Part shown: piece by piece, positions 1-43,659 of the stretch
Layout of the letters: every line of letters starts with the position of its first letter
Position numbering within the stretch: the stretch's first letter is position 1
Assembly: GCA_965203445.1 (NCBI GenBank)
Contig: OZ241883.1
Span: 32,001 to 96,000 of the forward strand
Source of the DNA: Candidatus Oxydemutator sp.
Lineage (GTDB): Bacteria; Pseudomonadota; Gammaproteobacteria; Poriferisulfidales; Oxydemutatoraceae
Length of the DNA stretch: 64,000 nt
Direction: 5' to 3'
Position numbers and translations under genes: made by a program
The notes under the pieces: model-generated
The model's database searches: none
What the model saw: only the letters and a program-made list of their open reading frames with translations
What the model was told of the DNA's origin: nothing

Positions 1-1109
1 TAGGCGACCAGCGAGCCGGCGCCCGAACCGCGCCCCGGCCCGACCGGTATGCCCTCGCGCTTGGCCCAGGCGATGAAGTCGGCGACGATCAGGAAGTAGC
101 TCTCGTAGCCCATGTCGCGGATGATCGCAAGCTCGGACGCGAGCCTCTTGCGGTAGGCCGCACGGTCGAGCGAGGCGCCCGCGGCCTCGAGGATCGCGGC
201 CAGGCCGCTCTCGGCGGCGGCCGTGATCTGGGCCGCCGCGGTGACACCCCGCGGCAGCGGGAACTCCGGCAGCAGCGTCTTGCCGAACTCGAGATCGAGC
301 GTGCAGCGCGTCGCGATCTCGAGCGTGTTCCTAAGCGCGCTCGGCACGCCGTCGAACAGCCGCGCCATCTCGTCGGCGTTCTTCAGGTACTGCTCCGGGC
401 TGTAGCGCCGCGGGCGGCGCTTGTCGGTGAGCGTGTAGCCCTGGCCGATGCACACCTTGGCTTCGTGCGAGTCGAAGTCCTCGCGCCTGAGAAAGCGCAC
501 GTCGTTGGTCGCGACCACCGGCAGGCGCGTGCGCGCCGCCAGCGCCAGAGCGTGCTCTATGTACTCCTTCTCGCCATCGCGCCGCGTGCTGTGCAACTCG
601 AGGTAATAGCGGCCGTCGAACAGGCCGCTCCAGAACTCCAGCGCGCGCTCGATCCGCGCGCGCTCGCCGCGCAGCAGCGCCTTGCCGACGTCGCCGCGCA
701 TGCCGCCCGACAGCGCGATCAGGCCGTCGTTGCAGTCGGCGAACCACTCGCGGCGCAGGTGCGGCGTATCGTGCTCCTGCCCCTCGAGGTACGCGCGGGT
801 GACCAGCCGCGTCAGGTTGTGGTAGCCGCGCGCATCGGCGCACAACAGCACGATCTCGTCATCGTCGCCGTCGTCGTCGGCGCGCACGTGCAGCTCGCAG
901 CCGATGACCGGCTTGACGCCGTGCTCGAGCGCGGCGCCGTAGAACTTGACCGCGGCGAACAGATTGTCGAGATCGGTCACCGCCACCGCCGGCGTCTTGC
1001 GGCGCGCCGTCTCCTTCATCAGCTCCGGTATCCGCAGCAGGCCGTCGCTGATCGAATACTCGGTGTGCAGGCGCAGGTGGACGAACGGCGGCGCGTTCAC
1101 GTCAGGCAC
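1..1109 (-). CDS. dnaE: DNA polymerase III alpha subunit, N-terminal part (runs off window)
   Basis: Minus strand reads [19 protein letters not shown], followed by PHP-domain motifs and the YFLIVADFI and [13 protein letters not shown] motifs; directly downstream of rnhB. Start (GTG 1109 or 1100) uncertain. Confidence 0.95.
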
Positions 1110-1762
1110 CGACGTTGCCGCCCGATTGCTTCGCGCACCGGGCGGTAGCCCTTACGGTGCGCGGCGCACGCGCCGTGCGCCTCCAATGCGCGCACGTGGG
1201 CGCGCGTCGGATAGCCCTTGTGCGACGCGAAGCCGTAGGCCGGATAGGTTTCGTGCAGACGCGCCATGCGGCGGTCGCGCTCGGTCTTCGCCAGGATCGA
1301 GGCCGCCGAAATGCAGCCGACGCGCGCGTCGCCGCCGACGACCGCGCAGCACGCGACGGCCGTATCGGGGCAGCGGTTGCCGTCTATCAGCGCGCAGTCC
1401 GGCGCCACCGCAAGCGCCCGCAACGCGCGCGCCATCGCCAACAGCGTCGCGTGCAGAATGTTCAGCCGGTGAATCTCCTCGACGCCGGCGGCGGCCACCG
1501 ACCACGCCAGCGCGCCGCGCCGGATGTCTTTTGCAAGCGCGCTCCTTGCGTCGGCAGCCAGCGTCTTCGAGTCGGCGCAGCCGGCCACCGGACGCGCCGG
1601 ATCGAACACCACCGCGGCCGCCACCACCGGCCCGGCCAACGCGCCGCGCCCCGCCTCGTCCACGCCGGCGACGAGGCGCCCGCCAAAGTCCGGCAGACGC
1701 GCGGCGGCGGGAACCAGTTTCGGCAACGGGGATCGGGCGGGCGCGTTCATCTTCGGGGACAA
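1097..1762 (-). CDS. rnhB: Ribonuclease HII
   Basis: [26 protein letters not shown] and HKGYPT motifs; true start may be ATG 1750. Confidence 0.95.
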
Positions 1763-3878: not shown

Positions 3879-4346
3879 GTGGCCGAGGGTTCGGCACCCA
3901 TTCAAACCACGCCAGAACCCTCCTCATCAGCCTTGGCACGCATTATGTTGAAATTCGAGAAAGTAATCGAATGCTTGACGCTATGCGGATATACCGCAAG
4001 CGCAAACTACATTGATTATCTGCGCTTCACCGACGATCTGGAAGAGGGAGACAAACCGCTGACCTTGGAGTCCGCCATGGGGTTTGTCGCCCTGATGCAG
4101 AACTTCGGCGACCTGGGAGAACCAATGATAGGGCTCTTTTCAGAAGGAACAATATCGGCGGAATGGCGAATTGCAGACGACAAACACCTCTTGATCGAAC
4201 CACTGGACGACAACAAAGCGTCTTTCGCCCTTATCGGCCCATCAGACAAACCAGGAAAGAAATTCCGCATGAACGGCAGAGGCACGATTACCGAAGTCAT
4301 CGCCACCTTGCGCAAACACGGCGTCGACCGGTGGATGAGCGCGTGA
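3879..4346 (+). CDS. Hypothetical protein
   Basis: Globular-looking 155-aa ORF (PMIGLFSEGTISAEW); start uncertain. Confidence 0.55.
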   Translation: MAEGSAPIQTTPEPSSSALARIMLKFEKVIECLTLCGYTASANYIDYLRFTDDLEEGDKPLTLESAMGFVALMQNFGDLGEPMIGLFSEGTISAEWRIADDKHLLIEPLDDNKASFALIGPSDKPGKKFRMNGRGTITEVIATLRKHGVDRWMSA

Positions 4347-4415: not shown

Positions 4416-5843
4416 TCAAGGCGTCGGCCTTTCGCTTCCATCCCAATAACACTGGAACTGGCGAACATGGTTAAACTCGATGATGTTTCCCCTGTGCTGT
4501 CTGCATAGTGAATTTATATCGAAAAATGGGTTCCCAATATCTTTACCATTCATAGGGTAATGGGCACATTCATCGTCTATATATTGGCATCTCGGACTAG
4601 CACCCAAAGAAGGTTCATTTCCATTGTATTCCAGGTAGCGCGCGTGCGATGGAATAATACCCCCCCAGTGGCAAACTAGATCCATTAGAGTGCTAACGGC
4701 AGAAGAAGCAAGAATCCCATTCGACCAGACAACCTGTGGCTGAGCTCCCGCATCCCCATAAGATCGAGCTTCTTTATCAACTTTTTGATCTTTGAGTACG
4801 CCCATACACCTAAGACAAGGCCTCCCAGGCATGGACAAAACGACTTGACCAGAAATCCGAAAAAACTTGCCACTCTTACTGACAACCATTCCAATATCTA
4901 TATAAGGGATATGATTTCTGCGACAGAATCGTTCCAGCTCATCCCGTTCTTTGAATGAATCAAGACAACCAAAAATTACGAAACATCCAGCCAAATCATC
5001 CAGCGCTGAACTCCACTTCCCTTTTATCGCATTAACCTCAGCGTCTGGCATGAGCCCTTTAATGGTGCGGGTGGCAATTTCTGCTTTCGTGCGTTCGTTC
5101 TGTACATCTTCCTGGGTCGCGCCGACGAGACGATTCAAATTGGAATTTTCAACTATGTCATAATCACAAATAACATAACGTCCAATTCCTATATGAGCCA
5201 ACTGCTGAATGACATGTGACCCTCCGCCTCCTAACCCGACCACACCAACCCTAAGCCGTGAAAATATCTGTTGACTTTCAGGACCAAGAAAACTTTGCCT
5301 GGAAAAATTACGCTCAAATTTTTTATTATCAGAAAGTCTCTTAGCAGACCATATGGACATTGGGGATCCGACTACAACATACTCATCTATTAGTACTGGT
5401 TCACCATCTTTCGCAAGCCAAACCACCCCCTTTCCTTTATCAAGTGAAAAAACAATAGCACCATGAGGCATATTGCTTGTCACATTAAAAAAATCCGGAA
5501 TAAGTTTGCGATTCGACTCAACATCGACATCACTAAAATTTGTTGCCCCCTTATGCGCATGCAAGTGGACATGAAACATTGAGCAGCCCTCTGACAAAGC
5601 AACTTGCATTGCCATACTGATAGCTTTTCTATTTATACACGCACCGACTGTAGGATCGGCATGGTAACAAGCGTCGGATACGGGATGATATTCTCGAGCG
5701 AGAATGACAAGTGTGTCGTTCGCTGAAGACACTGCCCCGCATGACAAAAAGCCTACACGTTCATCTGCCACGGCGTGTGGTCGAGAGAGATGGACACGCA
5801 CATCCTTCAACAGTTCCTTTGTTATCTTGAAAATAACCTTCAT
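4416..5843 (-). CDS. JAB/JAMM isopeptidase fused to ThiF/E1-like enzyme (bacterial ubiquitin-like system)
   Basis: N-terminal ERVGFL...HLH-x8-SDVD JAMM-like motif; C-terminal GVVGLGGGGS, DYDIVENSNLNRL, GCLDS and PCLRC E1 motifs. Confidence 0.9.
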   Translation of the reverse strand: MKVIFKITKELLKDVRVHLSRPHAVADERVGFLSCGAVSSANDTLVILAREYHPVSDACYHADPTVGACINRKAISMAMQVALSEGCSMFHVHLHAHKGATNFSDVDVESNRKLIPDFFNVTSNMPHGAIVFSLDKGKGVVWLAKDGEPVLIDEYVVVGSPMSIWSAKRLSDNKKFERNFSRQSFLGPESQQIFSRLRVGVVGLGGGGSHVIQQLAHIGIGRYVICDYDIVENSNLNRLVGATQEDVQNERTKAEIATRTIKGLMPDAEVNAIKGKWSSALDDLAGCFVIFGCLDSFKERDELERFCRRNHIPYIDIGMVVSKSGKFFRISGQVVLSMPGRPCLRCMGVLKDQKVDKEARSYGDAGAQPQVVWSNGILASSAVSTLMDLVCHWGGIIPSHARYLEYNGNEPSLGASPRCQYIDDECAHYPMNGKDIGNPFFDINSLCRQHRGNIIEFNHVRQFQCYWDGSERPTP

Positions 5844-6163
5844 TGCAAAACCCGAAGATGATTGGCAAGAATATGTAAGAGAGGAAGGCTGCTACTCACC
5901 CCCGAGTAAGAAAAGGTGTGCCACTCCCGTCCCAAAATTACATGAGTGCTCCAATTCCGCGCCTTGCCGTGGAAACAACGCCCTAAATAGAGATTGGTGG
6001 GTTCAGTTGAGTAACCCAAGAGCACATCTACTTCCTCTACTTTCCCATCCGAGTTAATCCTCGCCCCCGGAATATAGAGGTAATGGCAGCCTGACTCCAA
6101 CCGCTTTTCAGCAGATGGATAGATCCTCCTCAAATCTTGAAAGTCTTTCTCGTCATCAGTCAT
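5840..6163 (-). CDS. Prokaryotic E2/UBC-like protein
   Basis: Overlaps both Ubl and JAB-E1 by 4 nt; NWSTHVILGREWHTFSY...ILANHLRVL resembles bacterial E2 families. Confidence 0.7.
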   Translation of the reverse strand: MTDDEKDFQDLRRIYPSAEKRLESGCHYLYIPGARINSDGKVEEVDVLLGYSTEPTNLYLGRCFHGKARNWSTHVILGREWHTFSYSGVSSSLPLLHILANHLRVLQ

Positions 6164-6387
6164 GAGTACTGCCCCGCAGGTTCATGAGAAATGAACTTTT
6201 GCTCACTTCCTGGACGATCGTTTATCTGAACCTTGTCGCCCTCTCCTATTTCCTTGAGAGTACCATCCTCGATCTGGTCTATGACCTTTACAGGATCGAC
6301 CCCGAGAACCTTTTTCAGTTCGTCAGCAGAATAGTCACCAGGGTTCACTGGAACTTCTCTGCCGTCAATTTCGATATTAACTTTCAT
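6160..6387 (-). CDS. Ubiquitin-like (multi-ubiquitin domain, beta-grasp) protein
   Basis: 75 aa from ATG 6387 with AAGGAGG SD; MKVNIEIDGREVPV...ELKKVLGV...EQKFISHEPAGQYS; Gly four residues from the C-terminus. Confidence 0.75.
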   Translation of the reverse strand: MKVNIEIDGREVPVNPGDYSADELKKVLGVDPVKVIDQIEDGTLKEIGEGDKVQINDRPGSEQKFISHEPAGQYS

Positions 6388-6494
6388 AATATCCTCCTTA
6401 ATGATTGATAGTTGATCGAAAATAGCTCGTTTGAGCTTCATTTGGCCATCATAAACAACTTCTTTCTATCTTACAAGTGAAAATAAAGTAAGAT

Positions 6495-6515
6495 AATGTC
6501 AAATATAATGACATT
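6495..6515. promoter_or_regulatory. Inverted repeat AATGTCA-N7-TGACATT in divergent promoter region, candidate operator
   Basis: Perfect 7-bp palindrome arms in the AT-rich gap between the Ubl operon and the HTH gene. Confidence 0.5.
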
Positions 6516-6612
6516 TGTATGTATATTATATTGTGTTTCAATACAAAGGTGTTCTGTTTCTGTCCCTCAGCTTCGCGGGATAAAGACAGACATCTAAACA
6601 CTCTTAATATAG

Positions 6613-7041
6613 ATGTCCAAAAACAATCTCGGTTTGGCGAACCAATTCTATAGTGCCTTCGGGAAGCGCATTAAGAACCGGAGACGCGAACTGAAATTCA
6701 CACAAGTTGGGCTGTCAGAACTTGTTGGTATGTCCCGCACTACTCTTGCCAACATAGAGGCAGGCACCCAAAGAACTTCAGTGTTCTTGCTAATGCGCAT
6801 GGCAGATGCATTAAAAATTTCTCCAAGCGAGTTGATACCAAGTCTTTCCGAAGTGGAGGATCAACTGCGACAAGCGCGGAGAGCCTCCATACCAAGTGGA
6901 AACCAATCAAAATTAATAATCAAAGAACTAAAAAGTCTCAACATTTCTGTGAAGCCTAAAAGCAACATGGAAAGTGCATTGGAGGAAACAGTAAGCGAAG
7001 AAAAACTACGACTAAATAAACACAAAAGGAGAAAAACATGA
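6613..7041 (+). CDS. XRE-family HTH regulator (CapH-like)
   Basis: GKRIKNRRRELKFTQVGLSELVGMSRTTLANIEAG HTH_3 pattern. Confidence 0.9.
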   Translation: MSKNNLGLANQFYSAFGKRIKNRRRELKFTQVGLSELVGMSRTTLANIEAGTQRTSVFLLMRMADALKISPSELIPSLSEVEDQLRQARRASIPSGNQSKLIIKELKSLNISVKPKSNMESALEETVSEEKLRLNKHKRRKT

Positions 7042-7577
7042 ATGATTTCTATAAAAGGCTCGATGAGAAGGCGTACAAACTGCTCTTGCGATCAGAAGCA
7101 CTTGCCTTACCTGTAAGTCTTGAGAAGATCATCAACTTTTTGAAACTTGTTATACGCAAGAAGCCACTGGAAGACGAATTTGCCGGTTTCTTGGCGATAG
7201 AAGAAAAGACTATCGTAGTGAACTCACGGCAGGCGTCAGTACGCAGACGCTTCACTATCGCTCATGAGATTGGACATTATGTACTTCACAGAAAAAGCAA
7301 CCCCTCTTCACCTGTTTTTATTGACCGAACATATTTCCGTAAGAAAATTGATATTAGTAGCGCGACAGAACATCAAATGGAAATAGAGGCCAATGCTTTT
7401 GCAGCCGGCCTTTTAATGCCACAGATATTATTGGACGGATACCTTGATGAACATGCCGATATAGATGTGGGCAAAACTGTAGATATAAAGCTAATGGCGG
7501 ATGAATTTGAAGTAAGCAGGCAGGCCATGCGATTCCGCCTCCGTAATCTTGGATTTCTGGTAGAAATCAGTTTTTAG
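7038..7577 (+). CDS. ImmA/IrrE (M78) Zn metallopeptidase (CapP-like)
   Basis: RRRFTIAHEIGH and EIEANAFAAGLLMP; ATGA-coupled to the HTH gene. Confidence 0.9.
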   Translation: MNDFYKRLDEKAYKLLLRSEALALPVSLEKIINFLKLVIRKKPLEDEFAGFLAIEEKTIVVNSRQASVRRRFTIAHEIGHYVLHRKSNPSSPVFIDRTYFRKKIDISSATEHQMEIEANAFAAGLLMPQILLDGYLDEHADIDVGKTVDIKLMADEFEVSRQAMRFRLRNLGFLVEISF

Positions 7578-7585
7578 GCGATCTC

Positions 7586-9214
7586 ATGCCGACGTTGGAG
7601 TTCAAGGGTAAGCATATTGTCTATGCGCACCATCTGAGCGTTCCTTACCGGACGCTTGACGTGGTGCGTCGGAAGTCGGTGCCGGCGCGTGGGGCGGGCG
7701 CCGAGGAAGGCAGCCTGATTATCCACGGCGACAACCTGGACGCGCTGAAGGCGCTGATGCCGCGCTATGCCGGGCGCGTGAACTGCATCTATATAGACCC
7801 GCCCTACAACACCGGCAACGAGGGCTGGTGCTATAACGACAACGTCAATTCGGAATTGATGAAACGTTGGCTTGCGGAAAACGGCGCGGTGGACGGCGAC
7901 GACGAGGAGCGCCACGAGAAATGGCTGTGCATGATGTGGCCGCGCCTGCAACTGTTGCGCGAACTGCTGGCCGAGGACGGCGTGATTTTCATCTCGATAG
8001 ACGACCACGAGCAGCACCGCCTGCGGCTGATGATGGACGAGATTTTTGGAGAGGACAACTTTTATGCGATGTGTAGCTGGACGGCGCGCAACAAACCAAT
8101 GAACGCGGGCAGCGCGCGATTTAAGATACAAAAATCAGAGGAATATATCTTGGCTTACGGAAAAATACCGATGCCTGATCATGCGCCTTTTGTATTGGAA
8201 GAAAAAGAAGAACTGGAATACCCGTACACGGCTGATGACGGCAGAACGTATCGTGAGGAAGAAGTCCAACAAAGAAAAAACATCGGTATCAAGAGATCCG
8301 AAAAAATGGTTTTCTCCATTCTTGGCGTAGCACCACAAGCCAGCTATCGCTGGACAATAGGACGAGACACGGCCGAGCGACTTGCGCAAGAAAACAAAGT
8401 TTTTGCGCGGAACGGGAAGCTTATAAGAATTTTCTTCAGCGATGATGAATTAGAAAAACGATACCATCCCTTGTGGGCCAATTTCAATGAGTCTTGCGGG
8501 ACGAGTGAATCCGGCAAAAAGAAATTGGATGAGATAGTCAAAGGACACGGTATGGAAACCGTAAAGCCGGTTGACGTCATCAAAAAAATAATTTTCCACT
8601 TCGCCGGCAAAGACGCCATCATACTCGACTCGTTCGCGGGCAGCGGCACCACCGCCCACGCAGTGCTCGAGCTGAACAAACAAGACGGCGGCAACCGCAA
8701 GTTCATCCTCATCGAGTGCGAGGACTACGCCGACAAGGTCACCGCCGAGCGGGTGCGGCGCGTGATCAAAGGCGTGCCCGGTGCCAGAGACAAAGCCCTG
8801 CAAAAAGGGCTGGGCGGCACCTTCACCTTCTGCACGTTGGGGCGCGAACTCAACATCGAGAGCCTGCTGCGCGGCAAAGACCTGCCCGACTACGACGCCT
8901 TGGCGCGCCACGTGGCCTATACCGCGACCGGCGCCGCGATGGACAAGATCAGGCCGGGCAGGGATCACTACTTCGGCGAGACGGCGGACTATCGCCTGCA
9001 CATGATCTACCGCCCGGAAAAAGAATTTCTGTGCTCCAAGGAATCGGCGCTGACGCGCGACCTGGCCGTGCGCATCGGCAAGGCGGCGCGCAACAAAGGC
9101 AAGACCGCGCTGGTGTTCGCGCCGTGGAAATTCATCTCGCAAAAGGACCTGAGCGCGGAAAAGGTCACCTTCTGCCAACTGCCCTACGCCATCCACCAAC
9201 TCTACGGGCTGTGA
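7586..9214 (+). CDS. mod: Type III R-M methyltransferase (Mod)
   Basis: IHGDNL, IYIDPPYNTG, ILDSFAGSGTT; followed by Res. Confidence 0.92.
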   Translation: MPTLEFKGKHIVYAHHLSVPYRTLDVVRRKSVPARGAGAEEGSLIIHGDNLDALKALMPRYAGRVNCIYIDPPYNTGNEGWCYNDNVNSELMKRWLAENGAVDGDDEERHEKWLCMMWPRLQLLRELLAEDGVIFISIDDHEQHRLRLMMDEIFGEDNFYAMCSWTARNKPMNAGSARFKIQKSEEYILAYGKIPMPDHAPFVLEEKEELEYPYTADDGRTYREEEVQQRKNIGIKRSEKMVFSILGVAPQASYRWTIGRDTAERLAQENKVFARNGKLIRIFFSDDELEKRYHPLWANFNESCGTSESGKKKLDEIVKGHGMETVKPVDVIKKIIFHFAGKDAIILDSFAGSGTTAHAVLELNKQDGGNRKFILIECEDYADKVTAERVRRVIKGVPGARDKALQKGLGGTFTFCTLGRELNIESLLRGKDLPDYDALARHVAYTATGAAMDKIRPGRDHYFGETADYRLHMIYRPEKEFLCSKESALTRDLAVRIGKAARNKGKTALVFAPWKFISQKDLSAEKVTFCQLPYAIHQLYGL

Positions 9215-9218
9215 CGCG

Positions 9219-11816
9219 ATGCGCCCGAAAGAGTTCCAGGAAAACGCCCTCGACACGTTCGCCGCGTTCCTCGCCGAGCTGAAAAAACAGCAGGACGAGA
9301 CGGACAAGCGCGTCGCGGCCCTGGAGCGGGCGGCGGTAGCCGTCGGCGAAAAAGACCGCGACTATTTCGCCAGAACCTGGGAAGAATTGGGGCGGCGCGG
9401 GCTGCTGCCGCACGTCTTGGGCAAAGACGGCTCCAGGCATCCGCCGGCTTACGTGCAACGCTGCGACTGCCGCGGTGCGGTGGTGCCGCACGTGTGCCTG
9501 AAACTGCCCACCGGCGGCGGCAAAACCTTGCTGGGGGTGGCCGCGCTCGAGCGGATGAAGCCGCAAACGGGACTGGTGCTGTGGGTCACGCCGTCGCGCG
9601 CCATCTACAAACAGACCATCAGCGCGTTCGCCTACCGGGCGCACCCGTATCGCCAGTGGCTGGAGCGCGCCTGCGGCGGGCGCGTGAAACTGCTGCGCAA
9701 GAAAGACCAGTTCTCACGCGCCGACGTCGAGAACTATCTGTGCGTGCTGCCGATCATGCTGCAAGCGGCGGATCGGCGCAATGACACCGGCTTTCTCAAG
9801 ATCTTCCGCGACACCGGAAAATATCCCGGCTTCTTTCCGGACGCCGACGACGCGCCGGCCAACGACGAACTGCTGGCAAAGCACCCCGACCTGCACACCG
9901 GCGACCTGGCCGAAGACGCGCCCGGCGCGATCCGGCACAGTCTTTTCAACGCGCTCAAGATCGCGCGCCCGATCATCGTGCTCGACGAGGCGCACAACGC
10001 CTACACCGAAAACCGGCGGCGGCGGCTTTGCGAGTTCAACCCGCGCTTTGTGCTCGAACTGTCGGCGACGCCGGAACCCGGCGTCAGCAACGTCCTGGTG
10101 GACGTGCCGGGGGCGGCGCTGAAACGCGAGCAGATGATCAAACTGCCGCTGCACGTCCACAACTTCGAGAAGACCGACTGGAAATACACGCTGTCGAAAG
10201 CCAAAGAAAAGCGCGACATCCTGGAGCAGGAGGCGAAGGCGCTCCAGGGCGAGAGCGGGCGCTACATCCGCCCGATCATGCTGATCCGCGTCGAGCGCGT
10301 CGGCAAAGAGCAGCGCGACGGCCACCACGTGCACGCCGAAGACGTGCGCGACTACCTGATGACGCAACTGAAAGTGCCGCAAGACCATATCCGCCGCAAG
10401 ACCGCCGAGAAAGACGAGATCGCCGACGAGAACCTGCTGTCGCCCTATTCCGCGGTGCGCTACATCCTGACCAAAGACGCATTGCGCGAGGGTTGGGACT
10501 GCCCATTCGCCTACGTGCTGGCGCTGCTCGACACCACCAGAACGAAGGGCGCCCTGACCCAGATGACCGGACGCATCCTGCGCCAGCCCGACGCCGAACT
10601 GACCGGGCAAACGGCGCTGGACGAGTCCTATATCTATTGCTTCGACCGCAACGTGGGCGAGACCGTGGCCCAGGTAAAGCGCGGCCTCGAACAGGAAGGC
10701 ATGAGCGACCTGGCCGAGTTCGTGCGCCAGGGCGATGCGTCGGGCGACATCGCGAGCGGCGCCGTGGTCAAAACAATACGGCGTCGGCGAGCGTTCAAAG
10801 ACACGCGCATCTTCCTGCCGCGCGTCCTGCACCGCGCCGCCAAAGGCGGCAAGCGCTATCGCCCGCTGGACTACGAGACCGACGTGTTGGGCGGCGTGCA
10901 CTGGCACGACGTGGCCGCCGCGCCGCTGGGAATAGACGCGGCGGCGATAGACAAAGTCCGCGAGATCAGGGCCTCGGTGGATTTGCCGGGGTTCGACTTC
11001 GATTCGGACAACGAAGAGAAAATCATCGTCGTGGACAAGGAGTTGGCCGTCGAGTTTTTTGCCCGCCGCGTGTATGAAATCCTGCCCAACCCGTGGCTGG
11101 CGGGAGAAGTCGTGCGGCGGATGTTCGCCTCGCTGCGCCGCGAATACAACTATGACGACGACGCGATCTTCGACCGCCGCTACCACCTGTCGGAAATCCT
11201 GAAACAACGGCTCACCGAACTGATCGAGCACGAGGCGCGGCAAGTCTTTGCGCGCAAGCTTGAGAGCGGCGACATCCGCTTTGAACTGACTGCCGCCGAC
11301 GCCGGCTTTGAACTTGTGCGGACGCTGGAAAAAATGGTCGCAAGCGGCCAGCAGCCGCTGTTCCGCGAGCACAGCGATGTGCTTGAGAAATCGCTCTACG
11401 AAACGATGTACACCAAAGAGTTCAACGGCCTGGAAAAGGACTTCGCGCTCTATCTGGACGGCCACAGCGCCGTCGCCTGGTGGCACCGCTTCGCCGCCCG
11501 CCAGGACTACGGGCTGCAAGGCTGGCAGCGCCACCGGGTGTATCCGGACTTCGTCGTCTGCGTCGGCAAGGCCAACGGCAAAGGCGGCAGGCGCCGCGTC
11601 CTGGTGCTGGAGACAAAGGGAATGCAACTGGCCGGCAACCCCGACACCGAATACAAGGAAGCGCTGTTCCAGATGCTGGAAACGGCCGAACCCCGCGCCG
11701 CCGAATACGGCAGCCTGGCACTCGCAAAAGACAACCGCAAAGAACACCGCATGTCCCTGAGAATGATGTTCGAGAACAATTACCGGGAAGAATTCGAGAG
11801 GCTGGTGCAAAGTTGA
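9219..11816 (+). CDS. res: Type III R-M restriction subunit (Res)
   Basis: PTGGGKT, LDEAH, LSAT, LREGWDCP, QMTGRILR helicase motifs; C-terminal YPDF...LETKG nuclease. Confidence 0.9.
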   Translation: MRPKEFQENALDTFAAFLAELKKQQDETDKRVAALERAAVAVGEKDRDYFARTWEELGRRGLLPHVLGKDGSRHPPAYVQRCDCRGAVVPHVCLKLPTGGGKTLLGVAALERMKPQTGLVLWVTPSRAIYKQTISAFAYRAHPYRQWLERACGGRVKLLRKKDQFSRADVENYLCVLPIMLQAADRRNDTGFLKIFRDTGKYPGFFPDADDAPANDELLAKHPDLHTGDLAEDAPGAIRHSLFNALKIARPIIVLDEAHNAYTENRRRRLCEFNPRFVLELSATPEPGVSNVLVDVPGAALKREQMIKLPLHVHNFEKTDWKYTLSKAKEKRDILEQEAKALQGESGRYIRPIMLIRVERVGKEQRDGHHVHAEDVRDYLMTQLKVPQDHIRRKTAEKDEIADENLLSPYSAVRYILTKDALREGWDCPFAYVLALLDTTRTKGALTQMTGRILRQPDAELTGQTALDESYIYCFDRNVGETVAQVKRGLEQEGMSDLAEFVRQGDASGDIASGAVVKTIRRRRAFKDTRIFLPRVLHRAAKGGKRYRPLDYETDVLGGVHWHDVAAAPLGIDAAAIDKVREIRASVDLPGFDFDSDNEEKIIVVDKELAVEFFARRVYEILPNPWLAGEVVRRMFASLRREYNYDDDAIFDRRYHLSEILKQRLTELIEHEARQVFARKLESGDIRFELTAADAGFELVRTLEKMVASGQQPLFREHSDVLEKSLYETMYTKEFNGLEKDFALYLDGHSAVAWWHRFAARQDYGLQGWQRHRVYPDFVVCVGKANGKGGRRRVLVLETKGMQLAGNPDTEYKEALFQMLETAEPRAAEYGSLALAKDNRKEHRMSLRMMFENNYREEFERLVQS

Positions 11817-12071: not shown

Positions 12072-13442
12072 ATGAAGCTTCAAAGCCTGATCGCCGGCTA
12101 TCTGGAGAGGCTTGCGTGGTTGACCACCTCCCCAGGCACGTACGCCTACCGCGGCCAGGCAAATGCCGGTTGGCCGCTGAAATCGGCGGCTTACCGGCGG
12201 TTCGAGAATAATAGCGAGGAAGAACCCACCCGAGATGATTTTATCGAATACCATGAAGAGATTCTGGAATCTGCCCGCATGGATGGACACGGTGTAGTGG
12301 ACGGCCGCGATTTGAGAGACCTGGAACTGCTGGCCAAGTTGCAGCACCTCCGCACGGCGACCTGCCTGATTGACTTCAGCCGCAACTTCCTTGTTGCATT
12401 GTGGTTCGCCTGCCTTCCTCATAAAGGTAAAGACGGCACGTATACAAACGGCAAAGTGTTTGTCGTGAACACGAATGATCCTGTTACTTTTCTTTCTTTG
12501 GAACAACAAGACTTAAAGAAAAACATACAGAAAGTTCTTACTTTCAAAACACGCGAACAAGACGAATCCAGCACCGGAAGGAATGAAACCAGTATGCGAA
12601 AACCCTTGTATTGGCACTGGTCACCACACGGCCTGAACGAGAGGATTCTGAAGCAAGACAGCCTATTCATCTTTGGGCCGCCGAAGATAGAAGACACGCT
12701 GCTGCAAAGCATTAAGATCAGGCAAGAGGACAAAACCAGCCTCCTGCAAGAGCTCGAAACATTAGGCATAACGAGGAGATCTCTATTTAAAGATCTATCG
12801 GGATATGCAGAATCGCACGGCTGCAACGAACCTCTGCCGAAATTCCCGCGGACGGCAGAGGACTATTTTCGGGCAGGAAACGAAGCCTATCAACGGGGTA
12901 AAATAGACAAAGCTATAGAAAACTACAACAAAGCGATCAAACGCAAATCTGATTATGCACAAGCTTACAACAACCTAGGAGTTGCCAAAGCCAATCAAGG
13001 AAAAATGCTCGATGCCATAACAGACTATGACCAGGCGATCAAACTCAAGCCCGATCACGCGAACGCCTACTACAACCGAGCAATTACCAAAACCAAGCTG
13101 GAACGCTATCACGCTGCCATAACAGACTATGATCGTGTGATTGAACTCAAGCCCGATGATGCGGAAGCCTATATCAGCCGAGGGCGTGCCAAAACCAAGC
13201 TAACAGGCTATCACACTGCTGCCATAGCAGACTTTGACCGGGCGATTCAACTCAATCCTGATGATGCGAATGCCTATTGCTGCCGAGGAATTGCCAAGGC
13301 CAAACAGGGTGGTACAAATTCGGCACGAAGCGACCTCATCCGCGCAAGGCAGTTGGCTGAGCAAAGCGGAGACAACGAGCTTATGAAAATAATTGACGAA
13401 GCCCTATCGTACCTGGACGGCATAGACAAGCGCGGCAAATAA
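12072..13442 (+). CDS. FRG-domain protein with about 5 C-terminal TPR repeats
   Basis: YAYRGQAN.GWPL, LAKLQHLRTATCLIDFS.NFLVALWFAC, NERILKQDSLF, LGITRRSLF; then 34-aa TPR units. Confidence 0.88.
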   Translation: MKLQSLIAGYLERLAWLTTSPGTYAYRGQANAGWPLKSAAYRRFENNSEEEPTRDDFIEYHEEILESARMDGHGVVDGRDLRDLELLAKLQHLRTATCLIDFSRNFLVALWFACLPHKGKDGTYTNGKVFVVNTNDPVTFLSLEQQDLKKNIQKVLTFKTREQDESSTGRNETSMRKPLYWHWSPHGLNERILKQDSLFIFGPPKIEDTLLQSIKIRQEDKTSLLQELETLGITRRSLFKDLSGYAESHGCNEPLPKFPRTAEDYFRAGNEAYQRGKIDKAIENYNKAIKRKSDYAQAYNNLGVAKANQGKMLDAITDYDQAIKLKPDHANAYYNRAITKTKLERYHAAITDYDRVIELKPDDAEAYISRGRAKTKLTGYHTAAIADFDRAIQLNPDDANAYCCRGIAKAKQGGTNSARSDLIRARQLAEQSGDNELMKIIDEALSYLDGIDKRGK

Positions 13443-13635: not shown

Positions 13636-13897
13636 GCCCCGCCCCTTGTTTTATAATGCCGCAATGCCATTGAACGAAGCGGATGCGCGGGCCGAGCCGA
13701 TTGGCCCTGCGCTGCACCGGCGCGGCTGGTCGGGGGACGTGATCCGCCGCGAGACGACGGCGGGGAAAATCGAGAGTATCGGCGGCAAGGCAAGGCGGCG
13801 CGGCCACGGGAAAACCGATAAGGAACACCGCACGTCGTCGCGCATGATGTTCGAGAACAACTACCGGAAAGAGTCCGAGAGGCTGACACAAAATTGA
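13636..13897 (+). pseudogene. Chimeric stub: hsdR promoter and 5' end joined to the res 3' end
   Basis: MPLNEADARAEPIGPALHRRGWSGDVIRRETTAG matches HsdR start (19930); KEHRTSSRMMFENNYRKESERL matches Res end KEHRMSLRMMFENNYREEFERL. Confidence 0.85.
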
Positions 13898-15291
13898 AGG
13901 ACGATAAGAAACAACCGAAAGGCTTGATCGCCTTTCTGAAGAAACTTTTGGCAGAGGGCTATTTCCAGGCGGGCAACATAGTCTATCAGCGGGGCGACAA
14001 AAACGCCGCCATAGAAAAATACACCCGGGCGATTGAACTCAACCCCGATCATCCGGAAGCCCACAACAACCGGGGCATTGCCAAAACCAGGCTGGGAGAC
14101 CTGCCCGGTGCCGTAAAAGACTTTGGCCGAGTCATTGCCCTGAAACCCGATTGTGCCGACGCCTGCTACAACCGGGGAGTTGTCAAAGCCGATCTGGGAG
14201 ACATGCGCGGCGCGATAAAAGACTTTACGCAAGCGATTGCTCTTAAATCCGATTATGTCGACGCCTACTACAACCGAGGGGTTACCAAGGTCGATCTGGG
14301 AGACGTGCGCGACGCCATAACGGACTATGACCGGGTGATTGAACTCGACCCCAAGCACGCGAACGCCTACAACAACCGGGGAGTCGCCAAGGCCCATCTG
14401 GGAGACGTGCCCGCCGCCACGGCGGACTATGACCGCGCGCTTGAACTCGCCCCTGATCATGCGAGCGCCTGTTTCAACCGGGGAAACGCCAAAACCAAGC
14501 AGGGAGACAACCGCGGCGCCATCAAGGACTACGACCGCGCGATAGAACTCAAACCCGATCTTGCGAGCGCCTACTTCAACCGAGGAGTCGCCAAAACCGA
14601 TCTGGGAGACATGCCCGACGCCATAGCAGACTATGACCGCGCGATAGAACTCGAACCCGATGATGCGAGCGCCTACTACAACCGAGGAAATGCCAAAGCC
14701 GGGCGAGGAGACAACCGCGGCGCCATAAAGGACTACGACCGCGCGATAGCACTCAAACCCGATCTTGCGAACGCCTACTTCCACCGAGGGAATGCCAAAG
14801 TCAAGTGGGGAAACATGCCCGACGCCATAACAGACTATGACCGCGCGATTGCACTCAAACCTGATGATGCGAGCGCCTACTACAACCGGGGAGTCGCCAA
14901 AACCAGGCAGAAAGACAACCGCGGCGCGATAAAAGACTACGACCGCGCGATTGAACTCGAGCCTGATGACGCGGACGCCTACTACAACCGAGCAGTCGCC
15001 AAAGCCAGGCGAGGAAACGACCGCGGCGCCATAAAGGACTACGACCGCGCGATTGAACTCAAGCCTGATCTTGCGAACGCCTACTACAACCGAGGAGTTG
15101 CCAAAGCCAGGCAGAAAGACAACCACGGCGCCATAGAGGACTACAACCGGGCGGTTGAACTCGAACCTGATCTTGCGAAAGACCACAAACGAGGAAACGG
15201 CAAAACCAACGGAGGAGACACGTCCGCCATAACGGACTACGACCAGGCGAGTGAACTCAAACCCGATGATGCGAGCACCTACTACCACTGA
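13894..15291 (+). CDS. TPR-repeat protein (12 repeats plus one degenerate), probably prematurely terminated
   Basis: 102-bp/34-aa units AxAYYNRGxAKxxxGDxxGAIKDYDRAIELKPD; TTG start. Confidence 0.85.
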   Translation: MKDDKKQPKGLIAFLKKLLAEGYFQAGNIVYQRGDKNAAIEKYTRAIELNPDHPEAHNNRGIAKTRLGDLPGAVKDFGRVIALKPDCADACYNRGVVKADLGDMRGAIKDFTQAIALKSDYVDAYYNRGVTKVDLGDVRDAITDYDRVIELDPKHANAYNNRGVAKAHLGDVPAATADYDRALELAPDHASACFNRGNAKTKQGDNRGAIKDYDRAIELKPDLASAYFNRGVAKTDLGDMPDAIADYDRAIELEPDDASAYYNRGNAKAGRGDNRGAIKDYDRAIALKPDLANAYFHRGNAKVKWGNMPDAITDYDRAIALKPDDASAYYNRGVAKTRQKDNRGAIKDYDRAIELEPDDADAYYNRAVAKARRGNDRGAIKDYDRAIELKPDLANAYYNRGVAKARQKDNHGAIEDYNRAVELEPDLAKDHKRGNGKTNGGDTSAITDYDQASELKPDDASTYYH

Positions 15292-15514: not shown

Positions 15515-15632
15515 CGACACCAGCCAAGCCACAACCCGCCCGCATACCATTCCGCCCCTTGTTCTATAATGCAGCAATGCCATTGAACGAAGCGGATGCG
15601 CGGGCCAAGCCGATTGCCCCCGCCCCGCACTG
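15515..15632 (+). pseudogene. Second copy of hsdR promoter and 5' stub
   Basis: GCCCCTTGTTCTATAATGCAGCAATGCCATTGAACGAAGCGGATGCGCGGGCCAAG matches 19906-19961. Confidence 0.8.
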
Positions 15633-15655
15633 ACACGGCTGAGGAGACAACCACA

Positions 15656-16729
15656 ATGCCATCTGAAAGCTACAACCTGGGGATTCAACTCAGGCCTGAT
15701 GACGAGAGCGCCGACTACAACCGAGGGAATATCAAAGCTTCTTTCGGAGACCTGCGCGGCGCGATAAAGGACTACGACCGCGCGATTGAACGCAAGCCCG
15801 ATGATACGGACGCCTACAACGGCCGCGGCATGGCCAAAGCCCATCTGGGAGACTACCACGGCGCGATAAAAGATTACGACCGCGCGATTGAAATCGAACC
15901 CGATTTTGCGGCCGCCCACGTCAACCGAGGAGCTGCCAAAGCCCATCTGGGAGACAACCGCGGCGCGATAAAAGACTACGACCGCGCGATTGAATTCCAA
16001 CCTGATATTGCGGAAGCCTACAACAACCGAGGAGGTGCCAAATCATATCTGGGAGACAGGCGCGGCGCCATAAAAGACTATGACCGCGCGATTAAACTCA
16101 AACCTGATTATGTGCACGCCTACACCGGTCGAGGAACTGTCAAAGCCGAGATGGAAGACTATCGCGGCGCCATAGCAGACTTTGACCGGGCGATTGCACT
16201 CCAACCCGATCATGCGGGTGCCTATTTCAGCCGCGGCATGACCAAAGCCGAAATGGAAGACCACCAAGGCGCCATAAAAGACTACAACCGGGCGATTAAA
16301 CTCAAACCCGATTATGAGGGCGCCTACTGCGCCCGCGGCATGGCCAAAGTCTGGACAGGAGACGAACGCGGCGCCATAAAAGACTATGACCGCGCGATTA
16401 AACTCAAACCCGATTATGCGGACGCCTACAACGCGCGAGGACATGCCAGAGCCGAGCTGTCCGACGCCATAAAAGACTATGACCGGGCGATTGAATGCCA
16501 ACCCGATCACGCGGGCGCCCTCTGTAACCGGGCAAGTGCCGAAGCCGTTATGGCCGATATACATGCGGACCGGGGCGACTTCAAACGCGCAAAGCAGTCG
16601 ACCAAGTCGGCACGAGGCTACCTCGCCCGCGCAAAGAAGTCGGCCAGAAAAAGCGGAGACAAGGAACTCATCGAGGAGATCGACGACATCCTGTCGGACC
16701 TGGCCGCCACAGACAAACGCGCCAAATAA
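15656..16729 (+). CDS. TPR-repeat protein (about 8 repeats plus capping helix)
   Basis: Same TPR family; GAGGAG SD before ATG 15656; ends SGDKELIEEIDDILSDL..DKRAK, like the FRG-TPR C-terminus. Confidence 0.85.
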   Translation: MPSESYNLGIQLRPDDESADYNRGNIKASFGDLRGAIKDYDRAIERKPDDTDAYNGRGMAKAHLGDYHGAIKDYDRAIEIEPDFAAAHVNRGAAKAHLGDNRGAIKDYDRAIEFQPDIAEAYNNRGGAKSYLGDRRGAIKDYDRAIKLKPDYVHAYTGRGTVKAEMEDYRGAIADFDRAIALQPDHAGAYFSRGMTKAEMEDHQGAIKDYNRAIKLKPDYEGAYCARGMAKVWTGDERGAIKDYDRAIKLKPDYADAYNARGHARAELSDAIKDYDRAIECQPDHAGALCNRASAEAVMADIHADRGDFKRAKQSTKSARGYLARAKKSARKSGDKELIEEIDDILSDLAATDKRAK

Positions 16730-17706: not shown

Positions 17707-18612
17707 TCAGGCTGCAACAGCCGACTCCTTCTCTCGGCAATAATACATTGCCTCCCACTCCGCCGGGGGACGGTAGCCTATCGAACTCAACAAACGACGA
17801 TTGTTGTACCAGTCCACCCATTTCAGCGTCTCGCATTCCAGCGATGACTTCCCGTTCCACGTACCCAGACGCCGGATCAATTCGCTCTTGTAGAGACCTA
17901 TCACCGTCTCCGCCAGGGCATTGTCATACGAGTCTCCTACGCGACCTACCGACTGCGTTATACCGGCACGCAACAGACGCTCGTTGTAGTCCATAGACAG
18001 ATACGGGCTGCCGCGGTCGCTGTGATGGATCAGCCCCTTGCCTACCTCGCGCGAACACAAGGCCTGCTCCAAGGCGTCCAACACCAGCCGCGTGTCCATA
18101 AAGGACGACACGCTCCAGCCCACTATGCGCCGCGCATAGGCGTCTATCACAAACGCCGCATACATCACACCGCTCGACGTCCTCACATACGTCGCGTCCG
18201 ATACCCACAACTGGTTCGGACGCGGCGCCTGAAAGTTGCGCTTCACCTCATCCCGGTACTCAGAGCCCTGCGCCGCGGCGCTGTCCGTCGTTTGCCACCG
18301 GCGCCCGCGAACCACGCCCTGCATACCCGCCCTTCTCATCAAACGCTCCACCGTGCAGCGCGCCGCCGCTATCTCTTCACGCTCCAACTGGTGCCACACC
18401 TTGCGCGCACCATACGTCTCATGACTCCCTTCCCATATGCGCGCTATCTCCATAGACAGCGCCGCGTCCGTGTGCCAGCGACGACAGCGCAGTCTCGGAT
18501 CGCGCTCCTGCGCCTTGTGCGCATAGTAGGTGGATGGGGCTATCGGCAACACCTTGCACATAGGCTCGACCCCATACACTTCCTTGTTCTCGTCTATAAA
18601 ACGCACCATCAC
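17707..18612 (-). CDS. IS3 OrfB DDE transposase
   Basis: LWVSDATYV, IHHSDRGSPY, SYDNALAETVIGLYKSE. Confidence 0.93.
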   Translation of the reverse strand: MMVRFIDENKEVYGVEPMCKVLPIAPSTYYAHKAQERDPRLRCRRWHTDAALSMEIARIWEGSHETYGARKVWHQLEREEIAAARCTVERLMRRAGMQGVVRGRRWQTTDSAAAQGSEYRDEVKRNFQAPRPNQLWVSDATYVRTSSGVMYAAFVIDAYARRIVGWSVSSFMDTRLVLDALEQALCSREVGKGLIHHSDRGSPYLSMDYNERLLRAGITQSVGRVGDSYDNALAETVIGLYKSELIRRLGTWNGKSSLECETLKWVDWYNNRRLLSSIGYRPPAEWEAMYYCREKESAVAA

Positions 18613-18929
18613 TTCGCTTCGCGGTCGAGCTCCGCCTGGGCAAAAAAAGCCGTCGCCTTGCGCAGAATCTCGTTCGTGCGACGCAACGCAGCATTCTCCC
18701 TTTGCAGTCTCTTGCACTCCTGGGCTCGCTGCTCGTTGCTCATGCCCGGCGTCGCCGCCGCCTGCTCCGCTCGACGTACCCACCTGCGCAGTGTCTCCGA
18801 ACCGCAGCCGAACATAGCGGCCACCGATTCGATGGCTTTCCATTGCGATGGATGCTCCTGTTGGTTCTCAAGAACCATCTGGACGGCGCGTTCACGCACC
18901 TCCGGCGTATATTGGTTAAGGTGTTTCAT
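18609..18929 (-). CDS. IS3 OrfA
   Basis: YTPEVRERAVQMV...ETLRRWV...NEILRKATAFFAQAELDR; T7G candidate -1 frameshift site near 18641-18648. Confidence 0.92.
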   Translation of the reverse strand: MKHLNQYTPEVRERAVQMVLENQQEHPSQWKAIESVAAMFGCGSETLRRWVRRAEQAAATPGMSNEQRAQECKRLQRENAALRRTNEILRKATAFFAQAELDREAK

Positions 18930-19890: not shown

Positions 19891-19929
19891 TGACCTCGCC
19901 GCCCCGCCCCCTTGTTCTATAATGCTGCA

Positions 19930-22293: not shown

Positions 22294-22347
22294 CGGACGG
22301 GCGCATGTTCCCAGCGACGACCGTGTGCGACGCACACTCGTAACGAG

Positions 22348-23535: not shown

Positions 23536-23573
23536 GGATATAATCGCCAAAAAAACGTGCCGGAATCCTTTTC

Positions 23574-25022: not shown

Positions 25023-25614
25023 ACTGCCAAATAGCGATGGCAAATTGCCGCAAGGCTGGCAGTGGGTGCGGCTGGGTGATGTAAGCGATATTATCTCTGG
25101 TCAATCCCCACCAGGAAATACTTATCGGAAAACACCTGAAGGGCTGCCATTTTTTCAGGGGAAAGCCGATTTTGGCCCGAGAAGTCCGAAAGCAAGGGTT
25201 TGGTGTGTGGCTCCTAAAAAGATTGCCGAGCCTGGCGATATTCTAATCTCGGTCCGAGCACCAGTAGGGCCTACTAATGTGGCAGATGTAGAGTGTTGCA
25301 TCGGTCGCGGCCTCGCAATCATCCGCTGTAAGAATGACGCAAACACAGATTTTGTTCTATCGTTCTTGAAGCTCACGGAGGAAAAAATCTCACAAATGGG
25401 ATCGGGAAGCACTTTTGGATCAATAAATCGAGAGCATCTTTTGTCTCTTCAAATTCCCCTCCCACCCCTTGATGAACAGAGGAAAATCGTTGCCGACTTG
25501 AACCAGAAAACAGCCGCCGCCGACAAAGCCCGCGTTGCGGCCGAGGCGGAACTGGAGGCCATCAATGCCCTGCCTGCGGCTTTTCTTCGTCAAGCGTTTC
25601 ACGGTACTTTATAG
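25023..25614 (+). CDS. hsdS: Type I specificity subunit, single-TRD (half-size) HsdS; start unclear
   Basis: LPQGWQWVRLGDV...GDILISVRAPVG...IPLPPLDEQRKIV...AFLRQAFHGTL; one TRD only; frame is open from 24895. Confidence 0.85.
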
Positions 25615-25616
25615 CC

Positions 25617-40901: not shown

Positions 40902-40903
40902 GT

Positions 40904-43633: not shown

Positions 43634-43659
43634 GCTTCCAATTCTACACTGCTCGACTG

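Follow-up and report, generated by a model that had tools for sequence, protein, structure and literature searches.

Introduction

Among ubiquitin-like pathways, none but the Bub systems of bacteria is known to use oxyester instead of thioester intermediates. In the Type I system of Citrobacter (BubAB, BubCD and BubE), as described by Ye et al. (10.1101/2024.11.21.623953), BubCD trims BubAB after its conserved Gly, an S-x-H motif was identified as catalytic in the Bub E2, and BubCD's crossover-loop residue Y370, not a Cys, is required for conjugation. Bub operons were catalogued in that study via DUF6527, the family of BubE, with the statement that 'all Bub operons possess bubE'; the published catalogue cannot contain BubE-less systems, because it was built from DUF6527-containing operons. 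Here we analyse a 64,000-nucleotide stretch of DNA (hereafter the window; positions 32,001 to 96,000 of the forward strand of contig OZ241883.1, assembly GCA_965203445.1) from the gammaproteobacterium Candidatus Oxydemutator sp., which carries at 4416-7577 an operon for a ubiquitin-like protein (Ubl), an E2-like protein and a JAB-E1 fusion together with genes for a helix-turn-helix (HTH) protein and an M78 metallopeptidase.

We propose that this operon encodes a Ubl conjugation system under the control of a repressor/protease switch, and that it is a member of a widespread family that lacks BubE and is sister to Type I Bub (class 6e of Iyer), a reading to which we assign a probability of about 0.75. 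This BubE-less variant is real and probably functional. Among known systems it is nearest to Type I Bub, with which it most likely shares the Tyr-to-Ser oxyester relay. The locus goes far beyond chance. Homologues of each of its proteins are numerous, with gene order preserved, in the 80 related loci that were fetched. A literature search for a BubE-less or 'Type III' Bub, which covered the preprint of Ye et al. but not its journal version (2026) and part 1 of 7 of its Table S1, brought up only two 2024 preprints of the Corbett laboratory and the papers on CapK/CapS, with no description of the BubE-less family.

Results

Five open reading frames (ORFs) lie at the positions claimed for them in the initial annotation of the window, and the ORF list agrees. 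The genes for the Ubl precursor (6160..6387; 75 amino acids, aa), the E2 (5840-6163; 107 aa) and the JAB-E1 fusion (4416-5843; 475 aa) are translationally coupled, low-GC genes on the minus strand; by their coordinates, both junctions are 4-nt ATGA overlaps, and for the Ubl/E2 junction the sequence itself was inspected. Divergent from them, on the plus strand, are an XRE-family HTH gene (6613..7041; 142 aa) and a gene for an M78 (ImmA/IrrE-type) HExxH metallopeptidase (7038..7577; 179 aa). Among the operon and regulator proteins, Pfam recognises ThiF (E 6e-36), HTH_3 (E 3.6e-12) and Peptidase_M78 (E 4.3e-19). The GC content is 0.41-0.47 over 4501-7500 versus 0.70 in the left flank (1-2000). 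ORF coordinates, GC content, Pfam and PADLOC together bear out the arrangement first described, a low-GC three-gene operon divergent from an XRE-HTH/HExxH pair and adjoining a Type III restriction-modification (R-M) system.

The largest ORF, first annotated as a JAMM peptidase fused to a ThiF-type E1, can be assigned as such on the basis of its best match among PDB sequences, BubCD, and of its invariant JAMM residues. Its JAB/JAMM metallopeptidase domain (5334..5843, minus strand; residues ~1-170), the predicted Ubl maturase and possibly a deconjugase too, is followed by a ThiF-type E1 adenylation domain (4416..5333, minus strand; residues ~171-475). In a phmmer search, Citrobacter BubCD was the best match (E 4.8e-17, residues 78-322 versus 78-315), ahead of ThiF (E 1.5e-13), in an alignment that spans the H-x-H...S-x-x-D motif of BubCD; with a profile of 21 sequences, BubCD reached E 8.7e-28 and the next match E 6.6e-18. 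The JAMM residues E28, H91, H93 and D107 are invariant among 21 homologues and S104 is nearly so. The motif HxHx(6-14)SxxD was found in 75 of the 78 JAB ORFs from the 80 related loci and the window, and its spacer takes the form HxHx10SxxD in 66 of 75 ORFs of the BubE-less family, versus HxHx7SxxD in the aligned part of BubCD. The Pfam model Prok-JAB gave no match to the JAB domain, where searches at E up to 10 returned only a chance match to DUF3085.

The E1 part, which Pfam ThiF spans over residues 184-418, retains R182, G203-G208, D227, N235, N237, R238, K253 and D295 in all 21 homologues, as well as a Cys3-His set (C343, C346, C426 and H428) that forms a zinc site; the only conserved Cys residues of the E1 are these zinc ligands. 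Tyr362, invariant in 21 of 21 sequences, is located between the CxxC motif and a conserved PQVVW, which corresponds to the crossover loop. Among the 80 related loci and the window, the crossover Tyr is retained in 78 of 79 E1 ORFs, and the stretch from CxxC to Tyr is free of Cys in 63 of 75. The protein has the combination found in BubCD, a JAB domain fused to an E1 that lacks a catalytic Cys and carries an invariant crossover Tyr, with an equivalence of the two Tyr residues that is positional. The database protein for this gene (P0002) is 387 aa long and starts at Met89, so that half of the JAB domain is lost, E28 with it; the homologues extend over all of the 475-aa frame.

The 107-aa E2 is without a match in Pfam, NCBIfam, PADLOC or, with either the sequence alone or a profile of 80 sequences as query, among PDB sequences, and Prok-E2_E (Pfam) does not match it even at E up to 10. 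A word-indexed protein search found one relative, and a full HMMER scan of 1.84 billion representatives (E up to 0.001) found 93. Of these, 91 are 89-143 residues long; in the two larger proteins, of 360 and 392 aa, the match lies at the C-terminus (247-360) and in six short stretches, respectively. The AlphaFold (AF2) model of the E2 (predicted local distance difference test, pLDDT, 92.9; predicted template-modelling score 0.85) consists of a helix, a four-strand meander, a hairpin and a second helix. Its top Foldseek match was Citrobacter BubB (9eae_C; probability 1.00, template-modelling score 0.65), with an E-value of 0.017. As the Foldseek E-values for both the E2 and the Ubl models were above 0.001, a second look with VIA supplied Z-scores. 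BubB was again the top match of the E2 (Z 11.0, root-mean-square deviation 3.0 Å, 105 of 107 residues), followed by the TSG101 UEV domain (Z 7.8) and other UEV and E2 domains at Z 5-8. The UBC fold originally assigned to this ORF is supported by the model and by its top match.

An alignment of 80 E2 sequences revealed a conserved set of residues: S85, the predicted catalytic residue, is found in 80 of 80, H102, W71 and W81 each in 79 of 80, and N70 in 66 of 80, while column 57 holds Arg in 75 sequences and Lys in four, and column 54 holds Tyr in 75. No Cys is conserved across the 80 sequences. Alignment of the E2 family with seven canonical Prok-E2_E sequences (hhalign; probability 90.7%, E 1.2e-6, 88 columns) places S85 on the Ser of the invariant WQRWSRH, which contains the S-x-H motif; against one canonical Prok-E2_E sequence the probability was 0.9% and not significant. 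His102 is located in the last helix, and the basic column 57 lies near the position of the invariant Asp of the canonical proteins. The E2 family matches BubB in fold and has the aligned Ser, yet no His follows at +2 and Arg/Lys stands near the Asp position. A complex prediction for the E1 domain (170-475) and the E2 scored 0.23 against a mark of 0.32, gave no verdict and is used neither way.

The open frame of the Ubl gene (6160-6441, minus strand) would encode 93 aa, and an internal ATG at 6387 gives 75 aa; the latter is taken as the real start because an AAGGAGG Shine-Dalgarno sequence lies 6 nt upstream. The AF2 model (pLDDT 82.8, from an alignment of 26 sequences) shows the order of elements of a beta-grasp fold, and the top eight Foldseek chains were all bacterial multi-ubiquitin proteins, with an E-value of 0.0045. 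With VIA, the Z-scores were 10.6 to the Type II Bub protein of E. coli ZDHYS365, 10.2 to the Citrobacter Type I Bub protein, 9.5 to the Type II Bil protein of M. brachiatum and 7.5 to BubA 155-229, compared with about 6.9 to ubiquitin and 6.4 to ThiS (range for ThiS/MoaD 6.2-6.4); to five solved bacterial multi-ubiquitin structures they ranged from 9.0 to 10.6. Model and fold matches support the initial assignment of the small ORF as a beta-grasp Ubl, here a single domain.

The Ubl of the window ends in ...FISHEPAG-QYS. In 65 of the 76 Ubl ORFs of the related loci, the family ends in F-x-S-H-x3-G plus exactly three residues, and Gly72 is nearly invariant in the family alignment. The tail is mostly x-S-S in the family, so that QYS is unique in sequence and usual in length. 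The protein has the features of a Bub-type Ubl, which comprises one to three beta-grasp multi-ubiquitin domains and a C-terminal Gly. The conserved Gly followed by a three-residue tail fits a maturation by the JAB domain that would expose Gly72, and is consistent with the removal of QYS proposed at the outset. The length of the Ubl in the BubE-less family (L002-L081) ranges from ~75-110 aa (one beta-grasp domain) to ~150-290 aa (several domains), a spread in domain number that mirrors the diversity of one to three domains reported for Bub and Bil.

The DUF6527 serine protease BubE is missing from the operon. No DUF6527 (PF20137) was detected in the complete 2.38-Mb genome, where the best match (E 0.08, 14.5 bits versus a cut-off of 23.6) lies far from the window. 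In 41 of 50 genomes with related loci DUF6527 was likewise absent; in the other nine, the matches lie outside the fetched locus by coordinates, and blastn confirmed the absence of overlap for five of these nine genomes (eight DUF6527 loci). A JAB-E1 about 30% identical to that of the window was found in seven further genomes from the same order; six of the seven belong to the bacterial family of the window genome. One of these same-family loci, L086, is canonical by Pfam: Multi_ubiq (E 5e-17), a stand-alone Prok-E2_E (E 1.5e-28), Prok-JAB (E 1.5e-6) and DUF6527 (E 1.2e-12) are all recognised, and tblastn revealed the same gene set in L087 and L088 of the same family. When this canonical set was searched against the window with tblastn, only JAB-E1 was matched, with 33% identity over 249 aa. 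In L086 (at 8165-10068), L087 and L088, the canonical Bub operon is preceded, on the same strand, by genes for an AAA_15 ATPase and a 172-aa family-less protein, both conserved at 35-40% identity across the three loci.

A locus search with the single JAB-E1 protein found no relatives; an alignment-based scan with one genome per species did, and 443 JAB-E1 relatives in species-representative genomes were confirmed by tblastn. Eighty of the 443 loci were kept and, together with the window, make up the 81 loci counted below, in which modules were called with hidden Markov models from our own alignments. All four modules were detected in 72 of the 81 loci: 39, including the window, have the order Ubl, E2, JAB-E1, 32 have separate JAB and E1 genes, and one has a Ubl-E2 fusion. 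Overall, 37 of the 81 loci encode JAB and E1 separately, 76 have a stand-alone E2, and three are cut by contig ends. Clustering of all neighbouring ORFs identified the HTH/M78 pair as the only conserved neighbour (59 of 81 loci), with no other cluster in more than eight. Where at least 3.5 kb of upstream sequence was available, M78 lies upstream in 53 of 73 loci and is divergent in 44. As proposed initially, no E3 or effector is encoded, none being a conserved neighbour in the 81 loci, and the clustering with sulfur-transfer genes that would have spoken against a conjugation system was not seen among these neighbours.

Of three genomes of the same genus, one carries a JAB-E1 with 57% identity and two carry none. 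Relatives were found on ten plasmid records, six conjugative and three mobilizable, and no homologues at E 1e-10 were found in 50,697 phage records. The four-gene version on plasmid pSHV1 is annotated as a multiubiquitin domain protein, two hypothetical proteins and a ThiF family adenylyltransferase, and RefSeq still labels the E2 and JAB proteins of the BubE-less family 'hypothetical protein'.

Adjacent genes for an XRE-HTH protein and an M78 peptidase beside a regulated operon are characteristic of CapH+CapP. The HTH protein, a predicted repressor, contains HTH_3 at residues 20-74 and matches PADLOC capH (E 6.1e-10) over the HTH only (12-77 versus profile positions 3-68 of 103). The M78 protein, which is predicted to cleave the repressor, matches capP (E 5.7e-30) over profile positions 7-152 of 242 only. 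Its HEIGH motif starts at residue 76, and 104 residues lie between HExxH and the C-terminus, versus 180-210 in the long class of M78 partners. Among the related loci, the 53 M78 partners divide into a short class of up to 210 aa, with 18 members, and a long class with 35. The 179-aa M78 protein of the window was therefore not truncated by the insertion of the R-M genes, because that of the nearest relative (L038; 180 aa) is likewise of the short class.

The divergent intergenic region (6388..6612), which we infer to be the control region, contains, besides the Ubl gene's Shine-Dalgarno sequence, a promoter-like site for the minus-strand operon (at 6476..6448) and short palindromes. Two of the latter consist of 8-bp arms with a 13-bp spacer, TATCTTAC-N13-GTAAGATA at 6467-6495 and GACATCTA-N13-TAGATGTC at 6589-6617, and may serve as operators. 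Because the number of promoter-like sites in 6388-6612 equals the shuffle expectation, the promoter site and the palindromes are candidates only.

The operon is part of a defence island that spans roughly 3-32 kb of the window and comprises, besides the Ubl operon, a Type III R-M system, an FRG-TPR protein, an insertion sequence (IS) transposase, a Type I R-M system and a Fic protein. The Type III mod gene (7586-9214, plus strand; PADLOC MTase_III, E 4.7e-155) directly follows the M78 gene and is itself followed by res (9219-11816, plus strand; REase_III, E 3e-224). HTH, M78, mod and res are all on the plus strand with successive gaps of -4, 8 and 4 nt, and in the stretch 7038-11816 the GC content steps from 0.41 to 0.58 at the junction of M78 and mod; it is 0.41 in the HTH/M78 pair and 0.58-0.66 in mod/res, except for 0.47 at 8001-8500. 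With such short gaps and a shared strand, mod and res could be transcribed together with the HTH/M78 module and induced by it.

Further along follow a 456-aa protein (12072-13442) with an N-terminal FRG and a C-terminal TPR part (PADLOC candidate defence family PDC-S15, E 4e-28), TPR-only proteins at 13894-15291 and 15596-16729, and an IS-type transposase (rve; 17707-18843). The Type I R-M system (19912-27320; hsdR 19912-22293, hsdM 25617-27320) is interrupted by two genes, of which one (22348-23535) encodes a 395-aa protein that carries an M78 domain at its C-terminus and the other (23574-25022) a KAP-family NTPase; an inserted module is suggested, because the GC content dips to 0.47 at 24-26 kb. 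At 30285-31394 lies the gene for a Fic/DOC protein whose C-terminus is SoFic-like. Outside the island, a low-GC pair at 39669-43684, comprising a Schlafen AlbA_2/HATPase_c_4 protein and a 926-aa AAA_21/SMC_N ATPase, resembles another defence module. The 155-aa ORF that is convergent with the operon (3879-4346, plus strand) has no Pfam, NCBIfam or PADLOC family, returned only unnamed clusters in an Atlas search and is not conserved beside the related operons. ARAGORN called a 91-nt tRNA-Trp at 1151-1241, within the frame of an RNase HII-like ORF (1097-1762, minus strand); in DNA so rich in GC, this call is probably false.

Discussion

The conserved residues of the three proteins, together with the biochemistry of Citrobacter Bub and the behaviour of known HTH/M78 pairs, suggest a multistep scheme for the operon in which (i) the HTH protein would repress the divergent promoter until a stress or phage signal allows the M78 peptidase to cleave it, by analogy with CapH/CapP, ImmR/ImmA and DdrO/IrrE; (ii) the JAB domain would cut QYS from the 75-aa Ubl and expose Gly72, as the Gly-plus-three tail and the trimming by BubCD suggest; (iii) the ThiF-type E1 domain, in which the required residues are present, would adenylate Gly72; and (iv) Tyr362 and next Ser85 of the E2 would receive the Ubl in oxyester linkage, before its transfer to target lysines. 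Repression and proteolytic derepression by the HTH/M78 pair is a reasonable analogy. The Tyr362-to-Ser85 relay is proposed because of the invariance of these residues, the lack of a conserved Cys and the Y370/S333 relay reported for Citrobacter Bub by Ye et al.; an oxyester relay fits because the E2 has an invariant Ser without a conserved Cys and the E1 keeps the crossover Tyr. As no E3, effector or BubE is encoded, the choice of target would fall to the E2, and reversal, if any, to the JAB domain.

Several observations weigh against this reading. None of the 50 related loci checked has DUF6527 within ~6 kb of the operon, and the argument for an oxyester relay in the BubE-less family is one from residue conservation. 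The equivalence of Y362 with BubCD Y370 is positional rather than aligned, because the alignments stop at 322/323. The match of the Ubl to Multi_ubiq (Pfam) is below threshold (E 0.0026, 18.4 bits versus a cut-off of 24.5). In the E2, the His of the Type I S-x-H motif is absent; the window has a Ser two residues after S85, in a column that is variable in the family. Moreover, the E2 of the window departs from its family at two columns: residue 57, Arg or Lys in 79 of 80 sequences, is Asn (AAT, 5993-5995, one base from Lys), and residue 54, Tyr in 75 of 80, is Glu. These two substitutions may lower or alter its activity, and we regard them as a possible weakening of the enzyme rather than as evidence of decay: part of the deviation is lineage-specific, because the three nearest relatives, which have Lys57, also deviate at column 54. 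On the regulatory side, canonical CapP consists of peptidase, linker and GAF domains as described in 10.1101/2022.04.27.489752, and binds single-stranded DNA in its inter-domain groove according to 10.64898/2026.05.16.725639. The M78 protein of the window lacks this three-domain architecture and the GAF domain, and because the GAF domain is missing, the inducing signal of CapP is not transferable to it. Finally, even canonical Bub is not known to protect against phage.

In view of these points, parts of the initial annotation need to be reworded. The closest solved relatives are BubCD, BubB and BubA, but the designation 'Bub type' is not supported in its original form, since BubE is absent and the proteins fall outside Prok-E2_E and Prok-JAB. 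Nor is 'CapH/CapP-type' supported in that form: HTH and M78 genes are paired and match capH and capP, but the GAF-less 179-aa peptidase covers capP positions 7-152 of 242 only. Induction by DNA damage, stated for such pairs, is not established for an M78 protein without the GAF domain of canonical CapP. The term 'anti-phage' is not supported as written, since phage protection is undemonstrated even for canonical Bub; phage defence by the operon is nevertheless plausible from its context.

Could the operon be an ordinary member of Type I Bub that works exactly like Citrobacter BubAB/BubCD/BubE? The module set is the same, BubCD, BubB and BubA are the best PDB matches, and HTH/M78 regulators stand beside many Bub operons. 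The unfused Ubl and E2 genes make no difference from Bub either, since Table S1 of Ye et al. (10.1101/2024.11.21.623953) includes Type I operons whose Ubl and E2 genes are unfused, and stand-alone E2-like genes of class 6e were noted by Iyer et al. 2006 (PMC1779556). We still regard this as improbable, given that DUF6527 is absent from the genome itself and from the vicinity of 50 related loci, that canonical operons of the same bacterial family match Multi_ubiq, Prok-E2_E, Prok-JAB and DUF6527 while the window proteins do not, and that the S-x-H motif is absent and JAB-E1 is just 33% identical over 249 aa. The missing BubE, the Asn57 found in this E2 alone of 80 and the Glu in the Tyr54 column could also be read as signs of a decaying or inactive Bub-like remnant with a crippled E2, a foreign low-GC operon stranded in a genome of 70% GC. 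Three intact, translationally coupled ORFs, a strong Shine-Dalgarno sequence at the Ubl gene and the retention of all invariant catalytic residues of JAB, E1 and E2 (S85, H102) argue otherwise; the BubE-less layout is the norm of the family rather than a local loss, the E2 deviation is partly lineage-specific, and decay appears very improbable. An adenylation system without conjugation, be it a sulfur carrier or another of the ThiS/MoaD-ThiF/MoeB or MccB type, is hardly credible. ThiF, MoeB and MccB are indeed among the PDB or NCBIfam matches of the E1, and ThiS/MoaD share the Ubl fold at Z 6.2-6.4, but the NCBIfam scores stay far under their equivalog cut-offs (ThiF 86 bits versus 275, MoeB 59 versus 377), every complete locus includes a UBC-fold protein and a JAB peptidase, the Ubl is nearer to Bub multi-ubiquitin proteins (Z ~10) than to ThiS, and the HTH/M78 pair, rather than any gene for thiamine, molybdopterin or peptide maturation, is the conserved neighbour.

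A different question is whether the HTH/M78 pair acts on the divergent Ubl operon only, or whether the Type III R-M system is a further or even the main object of its control. Read-through from the co-directional HTH and M78 genes into mod and res is plausible given their spacing, and the CapK/CapS paper reports regulator pairs beside R-M systems in 88 of 443 cases. However, in 53 of 73 related loci the pair accompanies the Ubl operon, R-M genes are not conserved in the neighbourhood, and the GC content of the pair (0.41) matches the Ubl operon and not mod/res, which makes R-M control by the pair unlikely.

Beyond this reading, we tentatively suggest, at somewhat less than even odds, that the BubE-less family represents a third, unnamed Bub-like oxyester type, in which Type I-like modules would be combined with an active site (Ser85, basic residue 57 and His102) closer to that described for Type II, with conjugation reversed by JAB or not at all and controlled mainly by the HTH/M78 switch present in about three quarters of the loci. 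If this is true, the type would be roughly as common, with 443 species-representative loci, as all 544 catalogued Bub operons. A sister family without BubE that keeps the residues of the Tyr/Ser relay offers a natural test of the purpose of BubE, and its second set of E2 active-site residues a means of probing how the serine becomes reactive. It also adds many candidate operons, including plasmid-borne ones from cultured strains, to the search for phenotypes and targets.

Comparison with the known systems places the operon as follows. Like CapH+CapP, ImmR/ImmA and DdrO/IrrE, the regulatory genes comprise an XRE-HTH gene followed by a gene for an M78 HExxH protein, divergent from the controlled operon. 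The M78 protein differs from CapP in lacking the GAF part and a Cys in the switch-loop region, and the likeness of the HTH protein to capH is confined to the HTH; in size, the M78 protein is presumably nearer to ImmA. The operon has neither the gene linkage nor the equivalog-level matches of ThiS/MoaD-ThiF/MoeB sulfur transfer. With Bil (Type I/II BilABCD, bacterial ISG15-like), it shares Ubl, E2, JAB and E1 activities, which are separate genes there, the lack of an E3, and a Ubl whose conserved Gly is followed by extra residues that need removal. In contrast, Bil has a multidomain E1 (IAD-AAD-CYS) and an E2, each with a catalytic Cys, whereas the E1 part of the window protein is one ThiF domain of ~300 residues without a conserved catalytic Cys. 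Type II Bub (BubA, BubBD and BubE) shares the oxyester chemistry with crossover Tyr and E2 Ser that we propose here, and its Ser with an invariant Lys and His, as Ye et al. describe it, resembles Arg/Lys57 and His102, a likeness by description; unlike the window operon, its E2 is fused to the E1, JAB is absent and BubE is present.

Type I Bub (class 6e or '6E.1' of Iyer 2006) differs from the family of the window in possessing BubE and an E2 with Asp and Ser-x-His instead of Ser85, Arg/Lys57 and His102. The Pfam models that recognise its canonical parts fail on the window proteins, and CapH+CapP adjoin 168 of 544 Bub operons in the count of Ye et al. (10.1101/2024.11.21.623953), compared with M78 upstream in 53 of 73 loci of the window family. 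The JAMM spacer and the separate JAB and E1 genes of 37 of the 81 loci set the two apart as well. A multi-ubiquitin Ubl with a C-terminal Gly and processing by JAB, a minimal UBC-fold E2 with Ser replacing Cys, a JAB-E1 fusion whose ThiF-type E1 lacks a catalytic Cys and carries a crossover-loop Tyr, and the frequent association with HTH/M78 regulators, defence islands and mobile elements are common to both.

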